Assembly (NCBI RefSeq): GCF_050920415.1
Contig: NZ_CP169309.1
Strand: one strand, 5' to 3'
Length of the DNA: 64,000 nt
From: Escherichia coli
GTDB taxonomy: Bacteria; Pseudomonadota; Gammaproteobacteria; Enterobacterales; Enterobacteriaceae
In this document: one piece after another, positions 18,688 through 45,721 of the stretch
How the letters are laid out: every line of letters begins with the position of its first letter
How positions within the stretch are numbered: the first letter of the stretch is position 1
Program-made: the position numbers and the translations under genes
The notes under the pieces: generated by a model
The model's database searches: none
Told to the model about the DNA's origin: nothing
Seen by the model: only the letters and a program-made list of their open reading frames with translations

Positions 18688-18899
18688 GAGTTCCCCACGT
18701 CAGCGGGGATAAACCGCTATACGAAGTTATTAGGTCCGAAGAGGAGTTGAGTTCCCCACGTCAGCGGGGATAAACCGTTTACGTGTTATCGCGCACCGGC
18801 GACGGTGTGGAGTTCCCCGCGCCAGCGGGGATAAACCGATTCAGCAAATAGCGAATTTCATAAATATGATGTGTTCCCCGCGCCAGCGGGGATAAACCA
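18688..18899 (+). CRISPR. type I-E CRISPR array, 4 repeats / 3 spacers (ygcE-queE array)
   Basis: 29-bp repeats at 18688, 18749, 18810, 18871 with 32-bp spacers (period 61); repeats 1-2 are the variant GAGTTCCCCaCGtCAGCGGGGATAAACCG, repeat 3 is canonical, repeat 4 is degenerate (GtG..., terminal a). Confidence 0.9.
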
Positions 18900-19352: not shown

Positions 19353-19490
19353 ATATTCCTTGTAAAAACAGGGATAAACCGAACTAGTTAAAGTTTTTAT
19401 TATGTTCCCTGCATCAGCGGGGATAAACCGGACTTGTTATCATTTTTTAAGTTGTCGAACTTATGTTCCCCGCGCCAGCGGGGATAACCA
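19353..19490 (+). CRISPR. degenerate CRISPR remnant (2-3 decayed repeats)
   Basis: repeat-like units ending at 19381, 19430 and 19490 (atGTTCCCtGCatCAGCGGGGATAAACCG; atGTTCCCCGCGCCAGCGGGGATAACCA) with one 32-bp spacer 19431..19462. Confidence 0.6.
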
Positions 19491-19536
19491 TTCAGGTATG
19501 TTCAGGCCGGGCAGTTTCCCGCCCGGTCTTCCTCAC

Positions 19537-35757: not shown

Positions 35758-38424
35758 ATGGAACCTTTTAAATATATATGTCATTACTGGGGGAAATCCT
35801 CAAAAAGCCTGACGAAAGGAAATGATATTCATCTGTTGATTTATCATTGCCTGGATGTTGCAGCTGTTGCAGATTGCTGGTGGGATCAATCAGTCGTACT
35901 ACAAAATGCTTTTTGCCGAAATGAAATGCTATCAAAACAGAAGGTGAAAGCCTGGCTGTTATTTTTCATTGCCCTTCATGATATCGGAAAGTTTGATATA
36001 CGATTCCAATATAAATCAGCAGAAAGTTGGCTGAAATTAAATCCTGCAACGTCATCACTTAATGGTCCATCAACACAAATGTGCCGTAAATTTAATCATG
36101 GTGCAGCCGGTCTGTATTGGTTTAACCAGGATTCACTTTCAGAGCAATCTCCCGGGGATTTTTTCAGTTTTTTTGATGCCGCTCCTCATCCTTATGAGTC
36201 CTGGTTTCCTTGGGTAGAGGCCGTTACAGGACATCATGGTTTTATATTACATTCCCAGGATCAAGATAAGTCGCGTTGGGAAATGCCAGCTTCTCTGGCA
36301 TCTTATGCTGCGCAAGATAAACAGGCTCGTGAGGAGTGGATATCTGTACTCGAAGCATTATTTTTAACACCAGCCGGGTTATCTATAAACGATATACCAC
36401 CTGATTGTTCATCATTGTTAGCAGGTTTTTGCTCGCTTGCTGACTGGTTAGGTTCCTGGACCACAACGGATACCTTTCTATTCAAAGAAGATGCACCTTC
36501 AGGCATACAAGCGCTAAGAAAATATTTTCAGGATAGACAACAGGATGCGTGTCGGGTACTGGAGTTGAGTGGCCTTGTATCAAATAAGCGTAGTTATGAC
36601 GGCGTACATGCCTTACTGGACAATGGCTATCAACCAAGACAATTACAGGTGTTGGTTGATGCTCTTCCTACAGCTCCCGGGCTGACGGTGATTGAGGCAC
36701 CTACGGGATCAGGTAAAACCGAAACAGCGCTGGCCTATGCCTGGAAACTTATTGACCAACAACTTGCGGATAGTGTTATTTTTGCCCTCCCTACACAAGC
36801 TACTGCAAATGCAATGCTCAGCAGAATGGAAGCGAACGCGAGCCGTTTATTTACCTCCCCAAATCTTATTCTTGCTCATGGTAATTCACGTTTTAACCAC
36901 CTTTTTCAATCAATAAAATCACGCGCATTTACTGAGCAGGGGCAAGAAGAAGCGTGGGTTCAGTGTTGCCAATGGTTGTCACAAAGCAATAAGAAAGTGT
37001 TTCTTGGGCAAATAGGAGTTTGCACGATTGATCAGGTGTTGATATCGGTATTGCCAGTTAAACACCGCTTTATCCGTGGTTTGGGAATTGGTCGAAGTGT
37101 TTTAATTGTTGATGAAGTTCATGCTTACGACACGTATATGAACGGCTTGCTGGAGGCTGTGCTCAAGGCTCAGGCTGATGTGGGGGGGAGTGTTATTCTT
37201 CTTTCCGCAACTCTACCAATGAAACAAAAACAGAAACTTCTGGATACTTATGGTCTGCATACAGATCCAGAGGAAAATAACTCCGCATATCCACTCATTA
37301 ACTGGCGAGGTGTGAATGGTGCGCAACGTTTTGATCTGTTAGCTCATCCAGAACAACTCCCGCCCCGCTTTTCAATTCAGCTAGAACCTATTTATTTAGC
37401 TGACATGTTACCTGACCTTACGATGTTAGAGCGAATGATCGCAGCGGCAAACGCGGGTGCACAAGTCTGTCTTATTTGCAATTTGGTTGACGTTGCACAA
37501 GTATGCTACCAACGGCTAAAGGAGCTAAATAACACGCAAGTAGATATAGATTTGTTTCATGCACGCTTTACGCTGAACGATCGTCGAGAAAAAGAGAATC
37601 GTGTTATTAGCGATTTCGGAAAAAATGGGGATCGAAATGTTGGACGAATACTTGTCGCCACGCAAGTCGTGGAACAATCGCTCGACGTTGATTTTGATTG
37701 GTTAATTACCCAGCATTGTCCCGCAGATTTGCTTTTCCAACGATTGGGCCGTTTACATCGTCATCATCGCAAATATCGTCCCGCTGGTTTTGAGATTCCT
37801 GTTGCCACCATTTTGCTGCCTGATGGCGAGGGTTACGGACGACATGAGCATATTTATAGCAACGTTAGAGTCATGTGGCGGACGCAGCAACATATTGAGG
37901 AACTTAATGGAGCATCCTTATTTTTCCCTGATGCTTACCGGCAATGGCTGGATAGCATTTACGATGATGCGGAAATGGATGAGCCAGAATGGGTCGGCAA
38001 TGGCATGGATAAATTTGAAAGCGCCGAGTGTGAAAAAAGGTTCAAGGCTCGTAAGGTTCTGCAGTGGGCTGAAGAATATAGCTTGCAGGATAACGATGAA
38101 ACCATTCTTGCGGTAACGAGGGATGGGGAAATGAGCCTGCCATTATTGCCTTATGTACAAACGTCTTCAGGTAAACAACTGCTCGATGGCCAGGTCTACG
38201 AGGACCTAAGTCATGAACAGCAGTATGAGGTGTTAGCACTTAATCGCGTCAATGTACCCTTCACTTGGAAACGTAGTTTTTCTGAAGTAGTAGATGAAGA
38301 TGGGTTACTTTGGCTGGAAGGGAAACAGAATCAGGATGGATGGATCTGGCAGGGTAATAATATTGTTATTACCTACACTCGGGATGAAGGGATGACCAGA
38401 GTCATCCCTGCAAATCCCAAATAA
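35758..38424 (+). CDS. cas3: type I-E Cas3 HD nuclease / SF2 helicase
   Basis: 888-aa ORF; HD motif (LHDIGKF), Walker A APTGSGKTE, DEVH box (IVDEVHAYD). Confidence 0.96.
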   Translation: MEPFKYICHYWGKSSKSLTKGNDIHLLIYHCLDVAAVADCWWDQSVVLQNAFCRNEMLSKQKVKAWLLFFIALHDIGKFDIRFQYKSAESWLKLNPATSSLNGPSTQMCRKFNHGAAGLYWFNQDSLSEQSPGDFFSFFDAAPHPYESWFPWVEAVTGHHGFILHSQDQDKSRWEMPASLASYAAQDKQAREEWISVLEALFLTPAGLSINDIPPDCSSLLAGFCSLADWLGSWTTTDTFLFKEDAPSGIQALRKYFQDRQQDACRVLELSGLVSNKRSYDGVHALLDNGYQPRQLQVLVDALPTAPGLTVIEAPTGSGKTETALAYAWKLIDQQLADSVIFALPTQATANAMLSRMEANASRLFTSPNLILAHGNSRFNHLFQSIKSRAFTEQGQEEAWVQCCQWLSQSNKKVFLGQIGVCTIDQVLISVLPVKHRFIRGLGIGRSVLIVDEVHAYDTYMNGLLEAVLKAQADVGGSVILLSATLPMKQKQKLLDTYGLHTDPEENNSAYPLINWRGVNGAQRFDLLAHPEQLPPRFSIQLEPIYLADMLPDLTMLERMIAAANAGAQVCLICNLVDVAQVCYQRLKELNNTQVDIDLFHARFTLNDRREKENRVISDFGKNGDRNVGRILVATQVVEQSLDVDFDWLITQHCPADLLFQRLGRLHRHHRKYRPAGFEIPVATILLPDGEGYGRHEHIYSNVRVMWRTQQHIEELNGASLFFPDAYRQWLDSIYDDAEMDEPEWVGNGMDKFESAECEKRFKARKVLQWAEEYSLQDNDETILAVTRDGEMSLPLLPYVQTSSGKQLLDGQVYEDLSHEQQYEVLALNRVNVPFTWKRSFSEVVDEDGLLWLEGKQNQDGWIWQGNNIVITYTRDEGMTRVIPANPK

Positions 38425-38838
38425 CTTCGGGAATGATTGGTATCAATGACGATAACAAGACCAATAACGGTTTATCCCTACTTAAGTAGGGAAGGTGCAC
38501 AATGTACATCTTCTTTTAATTTCCCGGTATGAGATTTTATATTCACAGTATGAATATTTTATGTAATAAAATTTATGGTAATTATTATAACTAAAAATTT
38601 CTTTGATAATAAAACGAATAACTTGCAGATTTGAAATGCATGCATTATTGTCTTTAAACAATTCAACACATCTTAATATATGCATAGGTTAATTGTATTA
38701 AACCAATGAATATATTTTTGCAGTGAATGTGATTATTGAATTAATTACGCCGTATTTTTTCTTTGTTTTTACCGATAACGGAAGTGTGCCGACGTATAGA
38801 AATGCAGGAGAAATGTCGGAGCATATGAAGGAGAACAA
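38425..38838. promoter_or_regulatory. cas3-casA intergenic region holding the casA operon promoter (H-NS/LeuO-controlled in K-12)
   Basis: very AT-rich 414-bp spacer directly upstream of casA; the regulatory role is from established K-12 knowledge, not read from the sequence. Confidence 0.55.
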
Positions 38839-40347
38839 ATGAATTTGCTTATTGATAACTGGATCCCTGTACGCCCGCGAAACGGGGGGAAAGTCCAAAT
38901 CCTAAATCTGCAATCGCTATACTGCAGTAGAGATCAGTGGCGGTTAAGTTTGCCCCGTGACGATATGGAACTGGCCGCTTTAGCACTGCTGGTTTGCATT
39001 GCACAAATTATCGCCCCGGCAAAAGATGACGTTGAATTTCGACATCGCATAATGAATCCGCTCACTGAAGATGAGTTTCAACGACTCATCGCGCCGTGGA
39101 TAGATATGTTCTACCTTAATCACGCAGAACATCCCTTTATGCAGACCAAAGGTGTCAAAGCAAATGATGTGACTCCAATGGAAAAACTATTGGCAGGGGT
39201 AAGCGGCGCGACGAATTGTGCATTTGTCAATCAACCGGGGCAGGGTGAAGCATTATGTGGTGGATGCACTGCGATTGCGTTATTCAACCAGGCGAATCAG
39301 GCACCTGGTTTTGGTGGTGGCTTTAAAAGCGGTTTACGTGGAGGAACACCTATAACCACCTTCGTATGTGGGATCGATCTTCGCTCGACGGTGTTACTCA
39401 ATGTCCTCACAATACCTCGTCTTCAAAAACAATTTCCCAATGAATCAAATACGGAAAACCAACCTACCTGGATTAAGCCTGTCAAGCCCAATGAATCTGT
39501 GCCAGCTTCGTCAATTGGGTTTGTCCGTGGCTTATTCTGGCAACCAGCGCATATTGAATTATGCGATCCCATTGGGATTGGTAAATGTTCTTGCTGTGGA
39601 CAGGAAAGCAATTTGCGTTATACAGGTTTTCTTAAGGAAAAATTTACCTTTACAGTTAATGGGCTATGGCCCCATCCGCATTCCCCTTGTCTGGTAACAG
39701 TCAAGAAAGGGGAGGTTGAGGAAAAATTTCTTGCTTTCACCACCTCCGCACCATCATGGACGCAAATCAGCCGAGTTGTGGTAGATAAGATTATTCAAAA
39801 TGAAAATGGAAATCGCGTGGCGGCGGTTGTGAATCAATTCAGAAATATTGCGCCGCAAAGTCCTCTTGAATTGATTATGGGGGGATATCGTAATAATCAA
39901 GCATCTATTCTTGAACGACGTCATGATGTGCTGATGTTTAATCAGGGGTGGCAACAATACGGCAATGTTATAAACGAAATAGTGACTGTTGGTTTGGGGT
40001 ATAAAACAGCCTTACGCAAGGCGTTATATACTTTTGTGGAAGGTATTAAAAATAAAGACTTTAAAGGGGCTGGAGTCTCTGTTCATGAGACTGCAGAAAG
40101 GCATTTCTATCGACAGAGTGAATTATTAATTCCCGATGTATTGGCGAATGTTAATTTTTCCCAGGCTGATGAGGTAATAGCTGATTTACGAGACAAACTT
40201 CATCAATTGTGTGAAATGCTATTTAATCAATCTGTAGCTCCCTATGCACATCATCCTAAATTAATAAGCACATTAGCACTCGCCCGCGCCACGCTATACA
40301 AACATTTACGGGAGTTAAAACCGCAAGGAGGGCCATCAAATGGCTGA
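38839..40347 (+). CDS. casA: Cascade large subunit Cse1
   Basis: 502-aa ORF, first gene of casABCDE-cas1-cas2. Confidence 0.95.
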   Translation: MNLLIDNWIPVRPRNGGKVQILNLQSLYCSRDQWRLSLPRDDMELAALALLVCIAQIIAPAKDDVEFRHRIMNPLTEDEFQRLIAPWIDMFYLNHAEHPFMQTKGVKANDVTPMEKLLAGVSGATNCAFVNQPGQGEALCGGCTAIALFNQANQAPGFGGGFKSGLRGGTPITTFVCGIDLRSTVLLNVLTIPRLQKQFPNESNTENQPTWIKPVKPNESVPASSIGFVRGLFWQPAHIELCDPIGIGKCSCCGQESNLRYTGFLKEKFTFTVNGLWPHPHSPCLVTVKKGEVEEKFLAFTTSAPSWTQISRVVVDKIIQNENGNRVAAVVNQFRNIAPQSPLELIMGGYRNNQASILERRHDVLMFNQGWQQYGNVINEIVTVGLGYKTALRKALYTFVEGIKNKDFKGAGVSVHETAERHFYRQSELLIPDVLANVNFSQADEVIADLRDKLHQLCEMLFNQSVAPYAHHPKLISTLALARATLYKHLRELKPQGGPSNG

Positions 40348-41928: not shown

Positions 41929-42603
41929 ATGAGATCTTATTTGATCTTGCGGCTTGCTGGGCCAATGCAAGCCTGGGGGCTGCCGACCTTTGAAGGAACG
42001 CGACCTACCGGAAGATTTCCGACCCGAAGCGGGTTATTAGGGCTACTCGGGGCTTGTCTTGGGATCCAACGTGATGATACTTCTTCATTACAGGTGTTAT
42101 CAGAGAGTGTGCAATTTGCAGTGCGTTGCGATGAACTCATTCTTGACGATCGTCGTGTGTCTGTAACGGGGTTGCGTGATTACCATACAGTCCTTGGAGC
42201 GCGAGAAGATTACCGTGGTTTGAAAAGTCATGAAACGATTCAAACATGGCGCGAATATTTATGTGATGCCTCCTTTACCGTCGCTATCTGGTTAACACCA
42301 CAGGCAACGATGGTTATGTCAGAACTTGAAAAAGCAGTATTAAAGCCTCGGTATACACCGTATCTGGGGCGGAGGAGTTGTCCGCTAACACAACCGCTTT
42401 TTCTCGGGACATGTCAGGCGTCGGATCCTCAGAAGGCGCTATTAAATTATGAGCCCGTTGGCGGCGATATTTATAGTGAGGAATCAGTTGACGGGCATCA
42501 TTTAAAATTTACGGTGCGCGACGAACCGATGATCACCTTACCTCGACAATTTGCTTCCCGGGAATGGTATGTGATTAAAGGAGGTATGGATGTATCTCAG
42601 TAA
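41929..42603 (+). CDS. casD: Cascade subunit Cas5e
   Basis: ORF 41923..42603; start taken at MRSYLILRLAGPMQAWG. Confidence 0.92.
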   Translation: MRSYLILRLAGPMQAWGLPTFEGTRPTGRFPTRSGLLGLLGACLGIQRDDTSSLQVLSESVQFAVRCDELILDDRRVSVTGLRDYHTVLGAREDYRGLKSHETIQTWREYLCDASFTVAIWLTPQATMVMSELEKAVLKPRYTPYLGRRSCPLTQPLFLGTCQASDPQKALLNYEPVGGDIYSEESVDGHHLKFTVRDEPMITLPRQFASREWYVIKGGMDVSQ

Positions 42604-43189
42604 AATCATCATTGCCAGGGCCTGTAGCAGGGATCTTTACCAACTTCACCAGGGATTATGGCATTTATTTCCAAATAGACCAGATGCTGCTCGTGATTTT
42701 CTTTTTCATGTTGAGAAGCGAAACACACCAGAAGGCTGTCATGTTTTATTGCAGTCAGCGCAAATGCCTGTTTCAACTGCCGTTGCGACAGTCATTAAAA
42801 CTAAACAGGTTGAATTTCAACTTCAGGTTGGTGTTCCACTCTATTTTCGGCTTCGGGCAAATCCGATCAAAACTATTCTCGACAATCAAAAGCGTCTGGA
42901 CAGTAAAGGGAATATTAAACGCTGTCGGGTTCCGTTAATAAAAGAAGCAGAACAAATCGCGTGGTTGCAACGTAAATTGGGCAATGCGGCGCGCGTTGAA
43001 GATGTGCATCCCATATCGGAACGGCCACAGTATTTTTCTGGGGAAGGTAAAAATGGAAAAATCCAAACGGTTTGCTTTGAAGGTGTGCTCACCGTCAATG
43101 ACGCATCAGCGTTAATGGATCTTATACAGCAAGGTATTGGGCCAGCCAAATCGATGGGATGTGGTTTGCTATCTTTGGCTCCACTGTGA
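42590..43189 (+). CDS. casE: Cas6e crRNA endoribonuclease
   Basis: 199-aa ORF; MYLSKIIIARA... Confidence 0.95.
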   Translation: MYLSKIIIARACSRDLYQLHQGLWHLFPNRPDAARDFLFHVEKRNTPEGCHVLLQSAQMPVSTAVATVIKTKQVEFQLQVGVPLYFRLRANPIKTILDNQKRLDSKGNIKRCRVPLIKEAEQIAWLQRKLGNAARVEDVHPISERPQYFSGEGKNGKIQTVCFEGVLTVNDASALMDLIQQGIGPAKSMGCGLLSLAPL

Positions 43190-44513: not shown

Positions 44514-45701
44514 GAGTTCCCCGCGCCAGCGGGGATAAACCGCTCGCGTATACTCTCTGCCAACGTCTCCAGATGAGTTCCCCGCGCCAGCGGGGATAAA
44601 CCGGCGGGATTATCGGCACTGACGTCGGCGCTGTGGAGTTCCCCGCGCCAGCGGGGATAAACCGGGTCGCTTCCATATATGAACCTTGAGGATTAGGAGT
44701 TCCCCGCGCCAGCGGGGATAAACCGGTTCCATGCACTGCCCGCAGTGTCAGCCGTACGAGTTCCCCGCGCCAGCGGGGATAAACCGGTAAATCATACGTT
44801 GGCATCAGTATTTTTCTCGAGTTCCCCGCGCCAGCGGGGATAAACCGACTCCGCGCCATTTGAGAATTCTCAGTTCTGCGAGTTCCCCGCGCCAGCGGGG
44901 ATAAACCGCTACTGCTGTCAGACGGCAGGGCAAAACAGCGGAGTTCCCCGCGCCAGCGGGGATAAACCGGACGTGCGGATGCTGTTTCTGGTTTTACCTC
45001 CGAGTTCCCCGCGCCAGCGGGGATAAACCGTTTTTTCTCAGCGTCTGGCAGAGCTAATCGCCGAGTTCCCCGCGCCAGCGGGGATAAACCGGTGTCAAAT
45101 TTCATGTAATTGATGATCCAGCTGAGTTCCCCGCGCCAGCGGGGATAAACCGGGTATTTCTCGTTAACACGGTCGTATCAAAACGAGTTCCCCGCGCCAG
45201 CGGGGATAAACCGAGGGGTTGCAACCATAGCCCTTAGTTGATTGCGAGTTCCCCGCGCCAGCGGGGATAAACCGCCAGTGGATTTTAATAAACTCTCCAG
45301 CGAGCAGAGTTCCCCGCGCCAGCGGGGATAAACCGTTCGCCACGTCAGGCGTGATTTCCTGCACTGAGAGTTCCCCGCGCCAGCGGGGATAAACAGGGCG
45401 CGTCTGCGCCCGCTAGGACTCGTGTCAAGAGTTCCCCGCGCCAGCGGGGATAAACCGGGAGTTCAGACATAGGTGGAATGATGGACTACGAGTTCCCCGC
45501 GTTAGCGGGGATAAACCGCCCGGTAGCCAGGTTTGCAACGCCTGAACCGAGAGTTCCCCGCGCCAGCAGGGATAAATCGGCAACGACGGTGAGATTTCAC
45601 GCCTGACGCTGGTGTTCCCCGCATCAGCGGGGATAAACCGGGCGCACTGGATGCGATGATGGATATCACTTAGAATTCCCCGCCCCTGCGGTAGAACTCC
45701 C
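44514..45701 (+). CRISPR. type I-E CRISPR array, 20 repeats / 19 spacers
   Basis: 29-bp repeat GAGTTCCCCGCGCCAGCGGGGATAAACCG at 44514 and every 61 bp to 45673; 32-bp spacers; variants in repeats 15 (AAACaG), 17 (GCGttAGC), 18, 19 and a degenerate terminal repeat. Confidence 0.97.
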
Positions 45702-45721
45702 AGCTCCCATTTTCAACCCCA

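Follow-up and report, generated by a model that had tools for sequence, protein, structure and literature searches.

[quoted passage not shown] This raises the question of what such a fragment is doing between cas3 and casA. The first-pass annotation, which drew attention to it, had read it as a possible cas3 terminator hairpin, protein-binding site or vestige of a repeat. Here, we followed up the observation in the 64,000-nt stretch of DNA that carries the locus (hereafter, the window) and in related loci of other genomes. The region matches several E. coli chromosomes at 100% identity and K-12 MG1655 at 97.8%. Its genes all lie on the plus strand, in the order cysI, cysH, cas3, casA, casB-E, cas1 and cas2, and are followed by a 20-repeat array. 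The features of the locus and of the repeat-like element are as follows.

35758..38424, plus strand: cas3, an open reading frame with the Pfam domains Cas3_HD, DEAD and Cas3-like_C_2
38839..40347, plus strand: casA, an open reading frame with the Pfam domain CRISPR_Cse1
42590..43189, plus strand: casE/cas6e, an intact open reading frame with the Pfam domain PF08798 CRISPR_assoc, whose endoribonuclease product is predicted to cleave psiR1 and psiR2
44514..45704, plus strand: canonical CRISPR array with which repeats were compared, made up of 20 copies of GAGTTCCCCGCGCCAGCGGGGATAAACCG at a 61-nt period
38468..38496, minus strand (38496 to 38468): psiR1, repeat-like unit ACCTTCCCTACTTAAGTAGGGATAAACCG, assigned from its 19/29 match to the repeat, its structured pattern, its fold and the pairing of its orthologues
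38437..38467, minus strand: psiS, 31-nt spacer-like guide TTATTGGTCTTGTTATCGTCATTGATACCAA, placed between the two repeat-like units and with an AAG-flanked partial target
38408..38436, minus strand (38436 to 38408): psiR2, degenerate second repeat TCATTCCCGAAGTTATTTGGGATTTGCAG, in register, with repeat geometry and 14/29 identity

Anatomy of the repeat-like element at the cas3 stop codon

The fragment reported at first pass, CGGTTTATCCC, is present on the plus strand at 38468-38478, although its start had been placed 5 nt too early, at 38463. It shares 3 nt with a perfect 16-bp palindrome, CCCTACTTAAGTAGGG (38476-38491), which is unique in the window even when two mismatches are allowed (0.00 expected). 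Its distance from cas3, given as about 40 bp, is 44 nt when measured from the last base of the stop codon (38424) to the first base of the fragment. The proposed origin of the 11-mer, namely the 3' end of the repeat on the reverse strand, was borne out: the window holds 23 copies of GGGATAAACCG, 22 in the two CRISPR arrays on the plus strand and one here on the minus strand, compared with a chance expectation of 0.02 matches per window from shuffled sequences. The fragment is the 3' half of a longer unit, psiR1, and the rest of the feature had been missed.

Read on the minus strand, psiR1 consists of TT, a 6-bp stem (7 bp with a U5-A22 pair) closing a 4-nt loop, AT and an intact 8-nt 5'-handle, ATAAACCG, at 38475 to 38468. 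Its ungapped identity to the repeat is 19 of 29 positions, a figure that we dropped as evidence because scores of 19-20 are also obtained with two unrelated 29-mers from the window. Stem positions 9 and 10 and positions 17 and 18 are altered on both sides (CG..CG to TA..TA), and the stem differs from that of the canonical repeat at four positions. The second unit, psiR2, begins 60 nt from the first, compared with a period of 61 nt in the canonical array, and forms the hairpin CCCGAA-GUUA-UUUGGG, while its handle region is not conserved. It spans the cas3 stop codon, with the TAA (38422-38424) falling in the loop, and its 3' arm lies antisense to the final codons of cas3, so that it is under coding constraint too and its conservation is ambiguous. 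When the minus strand is folded, the MFE and the centroid structure both contain the two hairpins. Furthermore, the pattern TTCCC, three paired positions, N4, three paired positions and GGGAT, which was defined after the data had been seen and finds its independent support in the cross-locus tests below, occurs in the window only in the 22 true repeats, psiR1 and psiR2 (0.01 per window in shuffled sequences).

Two repeat-like units therefore flank one spacer-like sequence within the cas locus and outside the array; psiR1 keeps both the 5'-handle and the hairpin, psiR2 keeps the hairpin, and both run from TTCCC to GGGAT around a 6-7-bp stem. A canonical CRISPR array, or the vestige of one, was considered and set aside, given the identities of 19/29 and 14/29 and an orientation opposite to that of both arrays. 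By its sequence and predicted folding, psiR1-psiS-psiR2 (38496 to 38408) is a two-repeat degenerate mini-CRISPR antisense to cas3 and casA (hereafter, the mini-array). No Rfam family covers it, and the only Rfam matches were chance-level ones to snoRNAs.

Guide, target and hairpins across relatives

We aligned the hairpins of 15 units, comprising two canonical repeats, six psiR1 and seven psiR2. Standard pairs made up 97.1% of the alignment cells, and three of the seven pairs were changed on both sides (18 cells). None of 500 shuffles reached the covariation score, and slid controls were only 31-67% paired. Eight cells are G.U pairs in the minus-strand RNA and correspond to A.C mismatches in the plus-strand RNA; since they pair only in the minus-strand RNA, the functional strand is the minus strand. 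A psiR2 unit is found in all related loci, and its 5' arm varies among them (CCCGAA, CCCAAG, CCCAAA and CCCCGC) with pairing kept, and orthologous psiR1 units likewise keep pairing with differing sequences. Five of the seven intact psiR1 lineages examined share an identical handle, ATAAACCG, from which the other two (L011 and L014) differ by one base.

The guide has a partial match close to casA, the predicted target of the effector complex Cascade.

38591..38624, minus strand: predicted Cascade target, with the PAM AAG at 38624 to 38622 and the protospacer at 38621 to 38591, located by the psiS match

Pairing between psiS and the target extends over positions 1-17 (38621 to 38605) except for positions 6, 9 and 12, with 7 of 7 seed positions matched. 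In type I Cascade, the bases at positions 6 and 12 are flipped out and do not pair, as Shmakov et al. 2023 also note. Position 9, which adjoins the seed, is a real mismatch in the window and in K-12, and guide position 12 in K-12 is an A that pairs with the target. Within the window this is the single notable AAG-flanked match of psiS. In the 342-bp intergenic stretch, none of 20,000 shuffled versions of psiS reached the observed match, and PAM plus seed alone were found in 0.56% of them. For the five other spacers examined (second array, 19.4-kb cluster), the search for a PAM-flanked partial target in the window returned none. Counted from the casA ATG, the first base of the target is 218 bp upstream; relative to psiR1, the target lies 125 nt upstream on the minus strand. 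The placement of the fragment in the casA promoter region at first pass was thus loosely true: the fragment itself is 343-371 bp upstream of the casA ATG, but the target of the guide adjoins the promoter. The guide accordingly has PAM-proximal partial complementarity to a cognate-PAM site near the promoter of the effector cas genes, where the position relative to the mapped promoter, Pcas, is taken from the text of Shmakov et al.

Conservation in other strains had been named at first pass as a check. The 96-nt element is present in 1132 of 5426 complete E. coli genomes, always at an identity of at least 95% (500 at 99% or more and 632 at 95-99%), a count that covers this cas variant; the other I-E cas variant of E. 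coli lay beyond the reach of a distant-mode DNA search, and the count leaves aside any equivalent in the remaining genomes, about 4300. Within the species, two divergent strains, HCP4S3_I4 and AHM8C212RI (L002 and L013), have a G-to-A change at guide position 7 together with the same G-to-A change in the target, and a T-to-C change at target position 9 that restores the match there.

We then compared loci whose CasA homologues are 56-77% identical. Some have a short gap between cas3 and casA that leaves no room for a mini-array (30 bp in Atlantibacter, 94 bp in Citrobacter, and overlapping genes at two loci). Every other locus with a gap of 376-426 bp carries a minus-strand mini-array at the cas3 stop (L010, L011, L012, L014, L016, L065 and L066, the last identified by eye), with the exception of a Salmonella lineage (L006/L007; CasA 77% identical) in which psiR1 has decayed and the target is absent. 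The element is therefore dispensable in some lineages. The guides are unrelated across loci (CasA 60-71% identical; L010, L011, L012, L014, L016 and L065) and begin TTATTGG.., TTGCTTTG.., TAGTTCTC.., ACCGTGAT.., TTATTTTG.. and TCATTCTG... Nevertheless, every guide finds its best match within its own spacer region at an AAG-flanked site of the minus strand that is complete over the 7-nt seed (7/7) and 212-241 bp upstream of casA, and guide position 6 is mismatched in all loci. Specificity was scored in a matrix of eight loci (the window, L001, L013, L010, L011, L012, L014 and L016; CasA 60-100% identical). It was strongly diagonal, with scores of 11-14 for a guide on its own or a closely related region versus 1-6 on unrelated regions, and the observed scores were reached by 0-2 of 3000 shuffles; the ninth locus, L065, entered through a top-hit search only. 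Guide and target have thus co-evolved, both in the double change at position 7 within the species and in the locus-specific guides.

Additional searches of wider collections returned little. A scan of species-representative genomes with CasA found three distant Methylococcaceae loci only (32-36% identical), and no E. coli or Salmonella. As for phage mimics of the guide, the 47 viral matches to the handle plus seed were at chance level and none had a repeat-like hairpin, and a phage collection gave no blastn match. One viral sequence (L022) matching 15 nt of the E. coli target was judged coincidental; it lies at the end of a GC-rich ORF without hairpins.

Promoters, known systems and competing explanations

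The target lies in the stretch from which both casA and an antisense transcript could be expressed, and promoter scans placed candidates on both strands.

38606..38635, minus strand: candidate antisense promoter from a consensus scan, with -35 TTCAAA at 38635 to 38630 and -10 TATTAT at 38611 to 38606
38589 to 38584, minus strand: alternative antisense -10, TATAAT, from the consensus scan
38623..38651, plus strand: candidate Pcas core promoter, with -35 TTGCAG at 38623-38628, a 17-nt spacer and -10 TATTGT at 38646-38651

These placements are hypotheses, as scans in this 28%-GC region gave no more sites than shuffled sequences and the candidate Pcas hexamers of the window score under the listing threshold. 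The best promoter-like site on the minus strand, which may be the promoter of the published anti-Pcas RNA described below, overlaps the target, with its -10 inside the protospacer, and the -35 of the candidate Pcas overlaps the complement of the PAM. A similar arrangement is seen in L013, L010 and L014, where a -35-like TTGnnn or CTTnnn sits at the PAM and the end of a -10-like hexamer is 26-27 nt past it; for the -10 of L016 this distance is 37 nt (10 nt further).

An antisense RNA has been described in the position of the mini-array. Published accounts give anti-Pcas RNA a length of 150-200 nt and a position directly downstream of cas3, whose transcript it overlaps (PMC7074321); it was reported by Pul et al. 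2010, is repressed by H-NS, is predicted to be highly structured and has no assigned function (PMC7074321, PMC10011333). By position, anti-Pcas should contain psiR1, psiS and psiR2. It resembles the predicted precursor in being antisense, in occupying the place of the mini-array and in overlapping the 3' end of cas3, but the two reviews do not describe it as a crRNA-like precursor. Our literature search found no paper testing the native E. coli element or linking it to anti-Pcas.

Elements of this kind have been predicted before. Shmakov et al. 2023 ('Widespread CRISPR repeat-like/CRISPR-derived RNA regulatory elements in CRISPR-Cas systems') report repeat-like sequences near cas3 in 25-29% of I-E, I-D and I-F1 loci, and predict a mini-array in the cas3-cas8 region of E. 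coli I-E that is transcribed opposite to cas3. The same text describes an AAG-flanked target immediately upstream of Pcas that overlaps an H-NS site, mismatches at position 6 and no IHF site in the leader of the mini-array, and limits experimental validation to the I-F1 mini-array of P. aeruginosa. Their E. coli element lies between cas3 and cas8e/casA, and its spacer-proximal unit is the better conserved and the distal one degraded. Judged from this textual description, the element in the window is probably the same; it was already known as a computational prediction in kind and, almost certainly, for this locus. Their main text leaves anti-Pcas unmentioned and gives no guide-target covariation for the E. 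coli locus. What is new here is the covariation of guide with target and of the hairpin arms, the former being independent comparative evidence that the predicted element is under selection, the strand assigned from G.U pairs, and the proposed link to anti-Pcas by position.

A characterized relative is CreR (Cas-regulating RNA) of Salmonella enterica. Liu et al. 2023 introduced the name and found that the Salmonella I-E CreR represses P_casA approximately 8.6-fold with the Cascade of E. coli MG1655, an effect that is lifted by an excess of crRNA or by AcrIE8; a later preprint describes phage mimics of Salmonella CreRs. Like the element in the window, it is a degenerate mini-CRISPR upstream of casA, with an AAG PAM and a PAM-proximal partial match to the casA promoter region. 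Its psiR1 keeps the 5' handle and its psiR2 the 3' handle, and the E. coli element likewise keeps the psiR1 handle and the psiR2 hairpin. It differs in that its guide starts with TAG and has 15 consecutive matches to a target approximately 140 bp upstream of casA, and in that the distance to casA is at most 206 bp for the Salmonella element, while the E. coli mini-array is 343-431 bp upstream (over the cas3 stop) with its target at 218 bp. CreA of the CreTA/CrePA modules (I-B in haloarchaea and I-F in Acinetobacter) is a crRNA-like RNA with two degenerate repeats that guides Cascade by partial pairing to repress without cleavage. CreA, however, represses a toxin gene, whereas in the window no intact gene separates the target from casA. 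The repeat-derived guides tracr-L (type II-A) and scaRNA (Francisella type II-B) also direct an effector to a promoter by partial pairing, but that effector is the class 2 Cas9, the processing route is another one and there is no Cas6e hairpin.

Several relatives carry a further gene in this region. In L011, L012, L014, L016, L065 and L066, the interval between the target and casA holds a homologous gene for a hydrophobic peptide of 38-45 aa (for example, MIELANGIQMILNAVNSITSQGIVLIALLVVGLALIKLHR), at 61-73 nt from the target on its downstream side and directly before casA; in L010 the peptide gene has an in-frame stop. The peptide belongs to no Pfam or NCBIfam family, and its six database relatives are all hypothetical proteins. 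In the E. coli window, the corresponding position is occupied by a truncated ORF of 9 codons only (38680-38709, 59 nt from the target), and a 39-aa GTG ORF in the window shows no similarity. A CreTA/CrePA toxin-antitoxin module was considered for the window and rejected, as no intact candidate toxin gene is present. In the relatives, the layout of the peptide gene is that of a Cascade-repressed toxin (CreT/CreP), for which the peptide is a candidate only.

These comparisons also bear on explanations that do without a Cascade guide. Two of them concern the hairpin that first drew attention. A cas3 terminator, or a hairpin in the plus-strand RNA that stabilizes the 3' UTR, would fit the presence of two hairpins at and just past the cas3 stop and a psiR1 stem that, as a perfect palindrome, forms on either strand. 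We regard it as very unlikely, as no T-run follows the hairpins (the sequence past the hairpin is AAGGTGCACAATG on the plus strand and ATAAACCGTTATTGG on the minus strand), there are 0 terminator-like sites on either strand of 38300-38900, the minus-strand G.U pairs of orthologues become mismatches in plus-strand RNA, and the conserved handle and the guide-target match are left unexplained. The protein-binding option of the first-pass annotation would make the 16-bp palindrome a DNA operator for a dimeric regulator of the LeuO, CRP or SlyA type, which would agree with its perfect symmetry in a region known to bind H-NS, LeuO, CRP and SlyA. The orthologous sequences CCCCGCTGATGTGGGG, CCCTACACATGTGGGG and CCCCAACCATGTGGGG, however, are not DNA palindromes, their stems contain G.U pairs, and the regulator sites mapped in the literature are nearer casA, which makes an operator extremely improbable.

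The vestige suggested at first pass was half right: the repeat ancestry holds, but psiR1 is a full-length unit on the opposite strand with a second hairpin one period away and compensatory changes in its stem. We accordingly find it quite improbable that the element is a non-functional relic, that is, a decayed array fragment or misplaced repeat beside cas3 kept by linkage. Such a relic would be compatible with an identity of 19/29 that is matched by chance elsewhere in the window, with the Salmonella relative in which the unit has decayed, and with the type III mini-arrays that Shmakov et al. deem degraded and non-functional. It would not account for hairpin pairing kept through double changes, for a handle kept identical in most intact lineages, or for unrelated guides that each track an AAG-flanked promoter-region site of their own at the eight matrix loci and L065. 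Finally, anti-Pcas might be a classical antisense regulator that acts independently of Cascade on the termination, stability or translation of the 3' end of cas3 mRNA, a role that was the original suggestion for this RNA and has been proposed in the literature (PMC7074321, PMC10011333). The transcript does overlap the 3' end of cas3, and psiR2 overlaps its stop codon; nevertheless, the repeat-like geometry, the handle, the PAM and the co-varying target would be unexplained, and we consider such a role unlikely as the sole explanation, although it could coexist with a guide function. Overall, the first-pass interpretation is partly supported.

A possible RNA-guided feedback on Cascade production

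We consider it likely, from the sequence comparisons, that the mini-array is a CreR-type regulatory element, most likely one through which Cascade represses its own promoter. At the E. coli locus, the steps from transcription through processing and loading to repression would be as follows. An antisense transcript, probably anti-Pcas RNA, would start in the cas3-casA spacer region and run through the mini-array. Cas6e would cut at the base of each hairpin and release a crRNA-like RNA of approximately 60 nt, composed of AUAAACCG, the 31-nt psiS and the psiR2 hairpin, with the predicted mature 5' end 5'-AUAAACCGUUAUUGG (AUAAACCG-UUAUUGG). Cascade would load this RNA and bind the AAG-flanked site at 38624 to 38591. 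Only the PAM-proximal approximately 17 nt would pair, so that the R-loop would not be locked and Cas3 would not be recruited. In type I-E systems, PAM-proximal pairing of about 17 nt is insufficient for R-loop locking and Cas3 recruitment. The same rationale of partial pairing without cleavage is given for CreA and CreR by Liu et al. 2023 and Shmakov et al. 2023. The bound complex might then act as a repressor on or next to the divergent Pcas and anti-Pcas promoters and exert negative feedback on Cascade production. Abundant crRNAs, for which the canonical array (44514..45704) would be the source of competitors, or anti-CRISPRs would relieve this feedback. In K-12, the cas operon is silenced by H-NS, and the feedback would therefore matter only once this silencing is lifted.

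A broader and more tentative reading, which we hold as a possibility rather than an expectation, joins these elements. Anti-Pcas would be the guide precursor, and one Cascade site would span the divergent anti-Pcas and Pcas promoters, with the PAM on the Pcas -35 and the antisense -10 in the protospacer, so that Cascade and its own guide would be silenced together. In the relatives, that promoter of the cas operon would drive the conserved peptide first, and the peptide would be a candidate Cascade-repressed toxin; the 'standalone CreR' of I-E systems would be CreTA-like guards, and E. coli may have lost the peptide gene and kept the guide.

Work on type I-E CRISPR takes E. coli K-12 as its reference organism. 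The regulation of its cas genes by H-NS, LeuO, CRP, StpA and SlyA has been studied for 15 years, and to our knowledge an RNA-guided feedback loop has never been tested in the native locus. If the proposed feedback is real, Cascade levels would be set partly by competition between the guide and ordinary crRNAs, and the feedback loop would also be lost whenever the cas3-casA region is deleted or replaced, as is commonly done to 'activate' the system. The orphan anti-Pcas transcript would, in that case, gain a function.

The cas3 terminus and psiR2

The hairpin loop of psiR2, the second degenerate repeat unit of the mini-array, contains the cas3 stop codon in the window (38408-38436) and also in L010, L011, L012 and L014 (diverged relatives with the mini-array) and L006 (Salmonella enterica). 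The stop is TAA within GTTA, or in L014 instead TAG within CTAG, and the 3' arm of the repeat is antisense to the final cas3 codons (..N-P-K/R). The cas3 frame thus enters the repeat-derived hairpin and terminates there.

Small open reading frames upstream of casA

Diverged relatives have a conserved gene for a hydrophobic peptide of 38-45 aa, which lies 61-73 nt downstream of the guide's target and ahead of casA. The relevant features are as follows.

L011:3042-3164, peptide gene
L012:6350-6472, peptide gene
L014:6326-6463, peptide gene
L016:6353-6469, peptide gene
L065:2501-2635, peptide gene
L066:2501-2635, peptide gene
Window 38680-38709, aligned position in E. coli, a 9-codon truncated ORF (MHRLIVLNQ*) and nothing longer
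Window 38723-38842, GTG-initiated ORF of 39 codons, MNVIIELITPYFFFVFTDNGSVPTYRNAGEMSEHMKENK

The copy in L010 carries an in-frame stop. The 38-45-aa peptide had no family match, and only six database entries were found for it, each 'hypothetical'; it may be a toxin repressed by Cascade, or else a leader peptide. As for the 39-codon ORF, its terminal ATGA overlaps the casA start codon, and it is absent from the RefSeq annotation. It lacks a Shine-Dalgarno-like sequence, matches no family and bears no similarity to the peptide encoded in the related loci.

Repeat-like sequences and a viral match

Another short repeat cluster was located in the window.

Window 19353-19491, short repeat cluster about 450 nt past the second CRISPR array (18688-18899)

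Its first unit is a degenerate repeat (ATATTCCTTGTAAAAACAGGGATAAACCG) whose hairpin is intact and whose handle (ATAAACCG) is perfect. Beyond it lie two spacers, of 20 nt and then 32 nt, separated by a variant repeat, and a truncated repeat comes after the second spacer. No PAM-flanked partial target for either spacer was found in the window.

On a viral contig (L022:14496-14518; IMGVR_UViG_3300008089_000129), ATAAACCG is followed by TTATTCGTTTTATTA, 15 nt identical to the E. coli target protospacer, of which 7 bases were not fixed by the search pattern. This match was judged coincidental, given that it has no repeat-like hairpin nearby and falls where a GC-rich ORF ends.

Decay, rearrangement and distribution of the cas locus

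Two Salmonella enterica loci (CasA 77% identical) carry a decayed mini-array at the homologous position.

L006:6083-6160, and likewise L007, decayed mini-array

In both, the psiR2 hairpin is retained, the stem of psiR1 (..CCCTCTTGTCGGATGGGTAAACCAG) is broken with its handle altered, and the AAG-flanked target is absent. These loci are a natural case of mini-array loss. Separately, in the divergent E. coli strain HCP4S3_I4 (L002:560-590 and 839-1101), a 13-bp insertion adjoining the guide's target is a local duplication (CTCTTTAATAAAA), and the casA start is replaced by an IS3-family transposase.

Only about 21% of complete E. coli genomes were found to carry the K-12-type cas3-casA region. A search of the species-representative collection gave no close CasA relative, its sole matches being from Methylococcaceae (32-36% identical). 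Close relatives (60-77%) are scattered among Salmonella, Xenorhabdus, and metagenome contigs, which indicates that the cas cassette is patchy and has probably moved horizontally.
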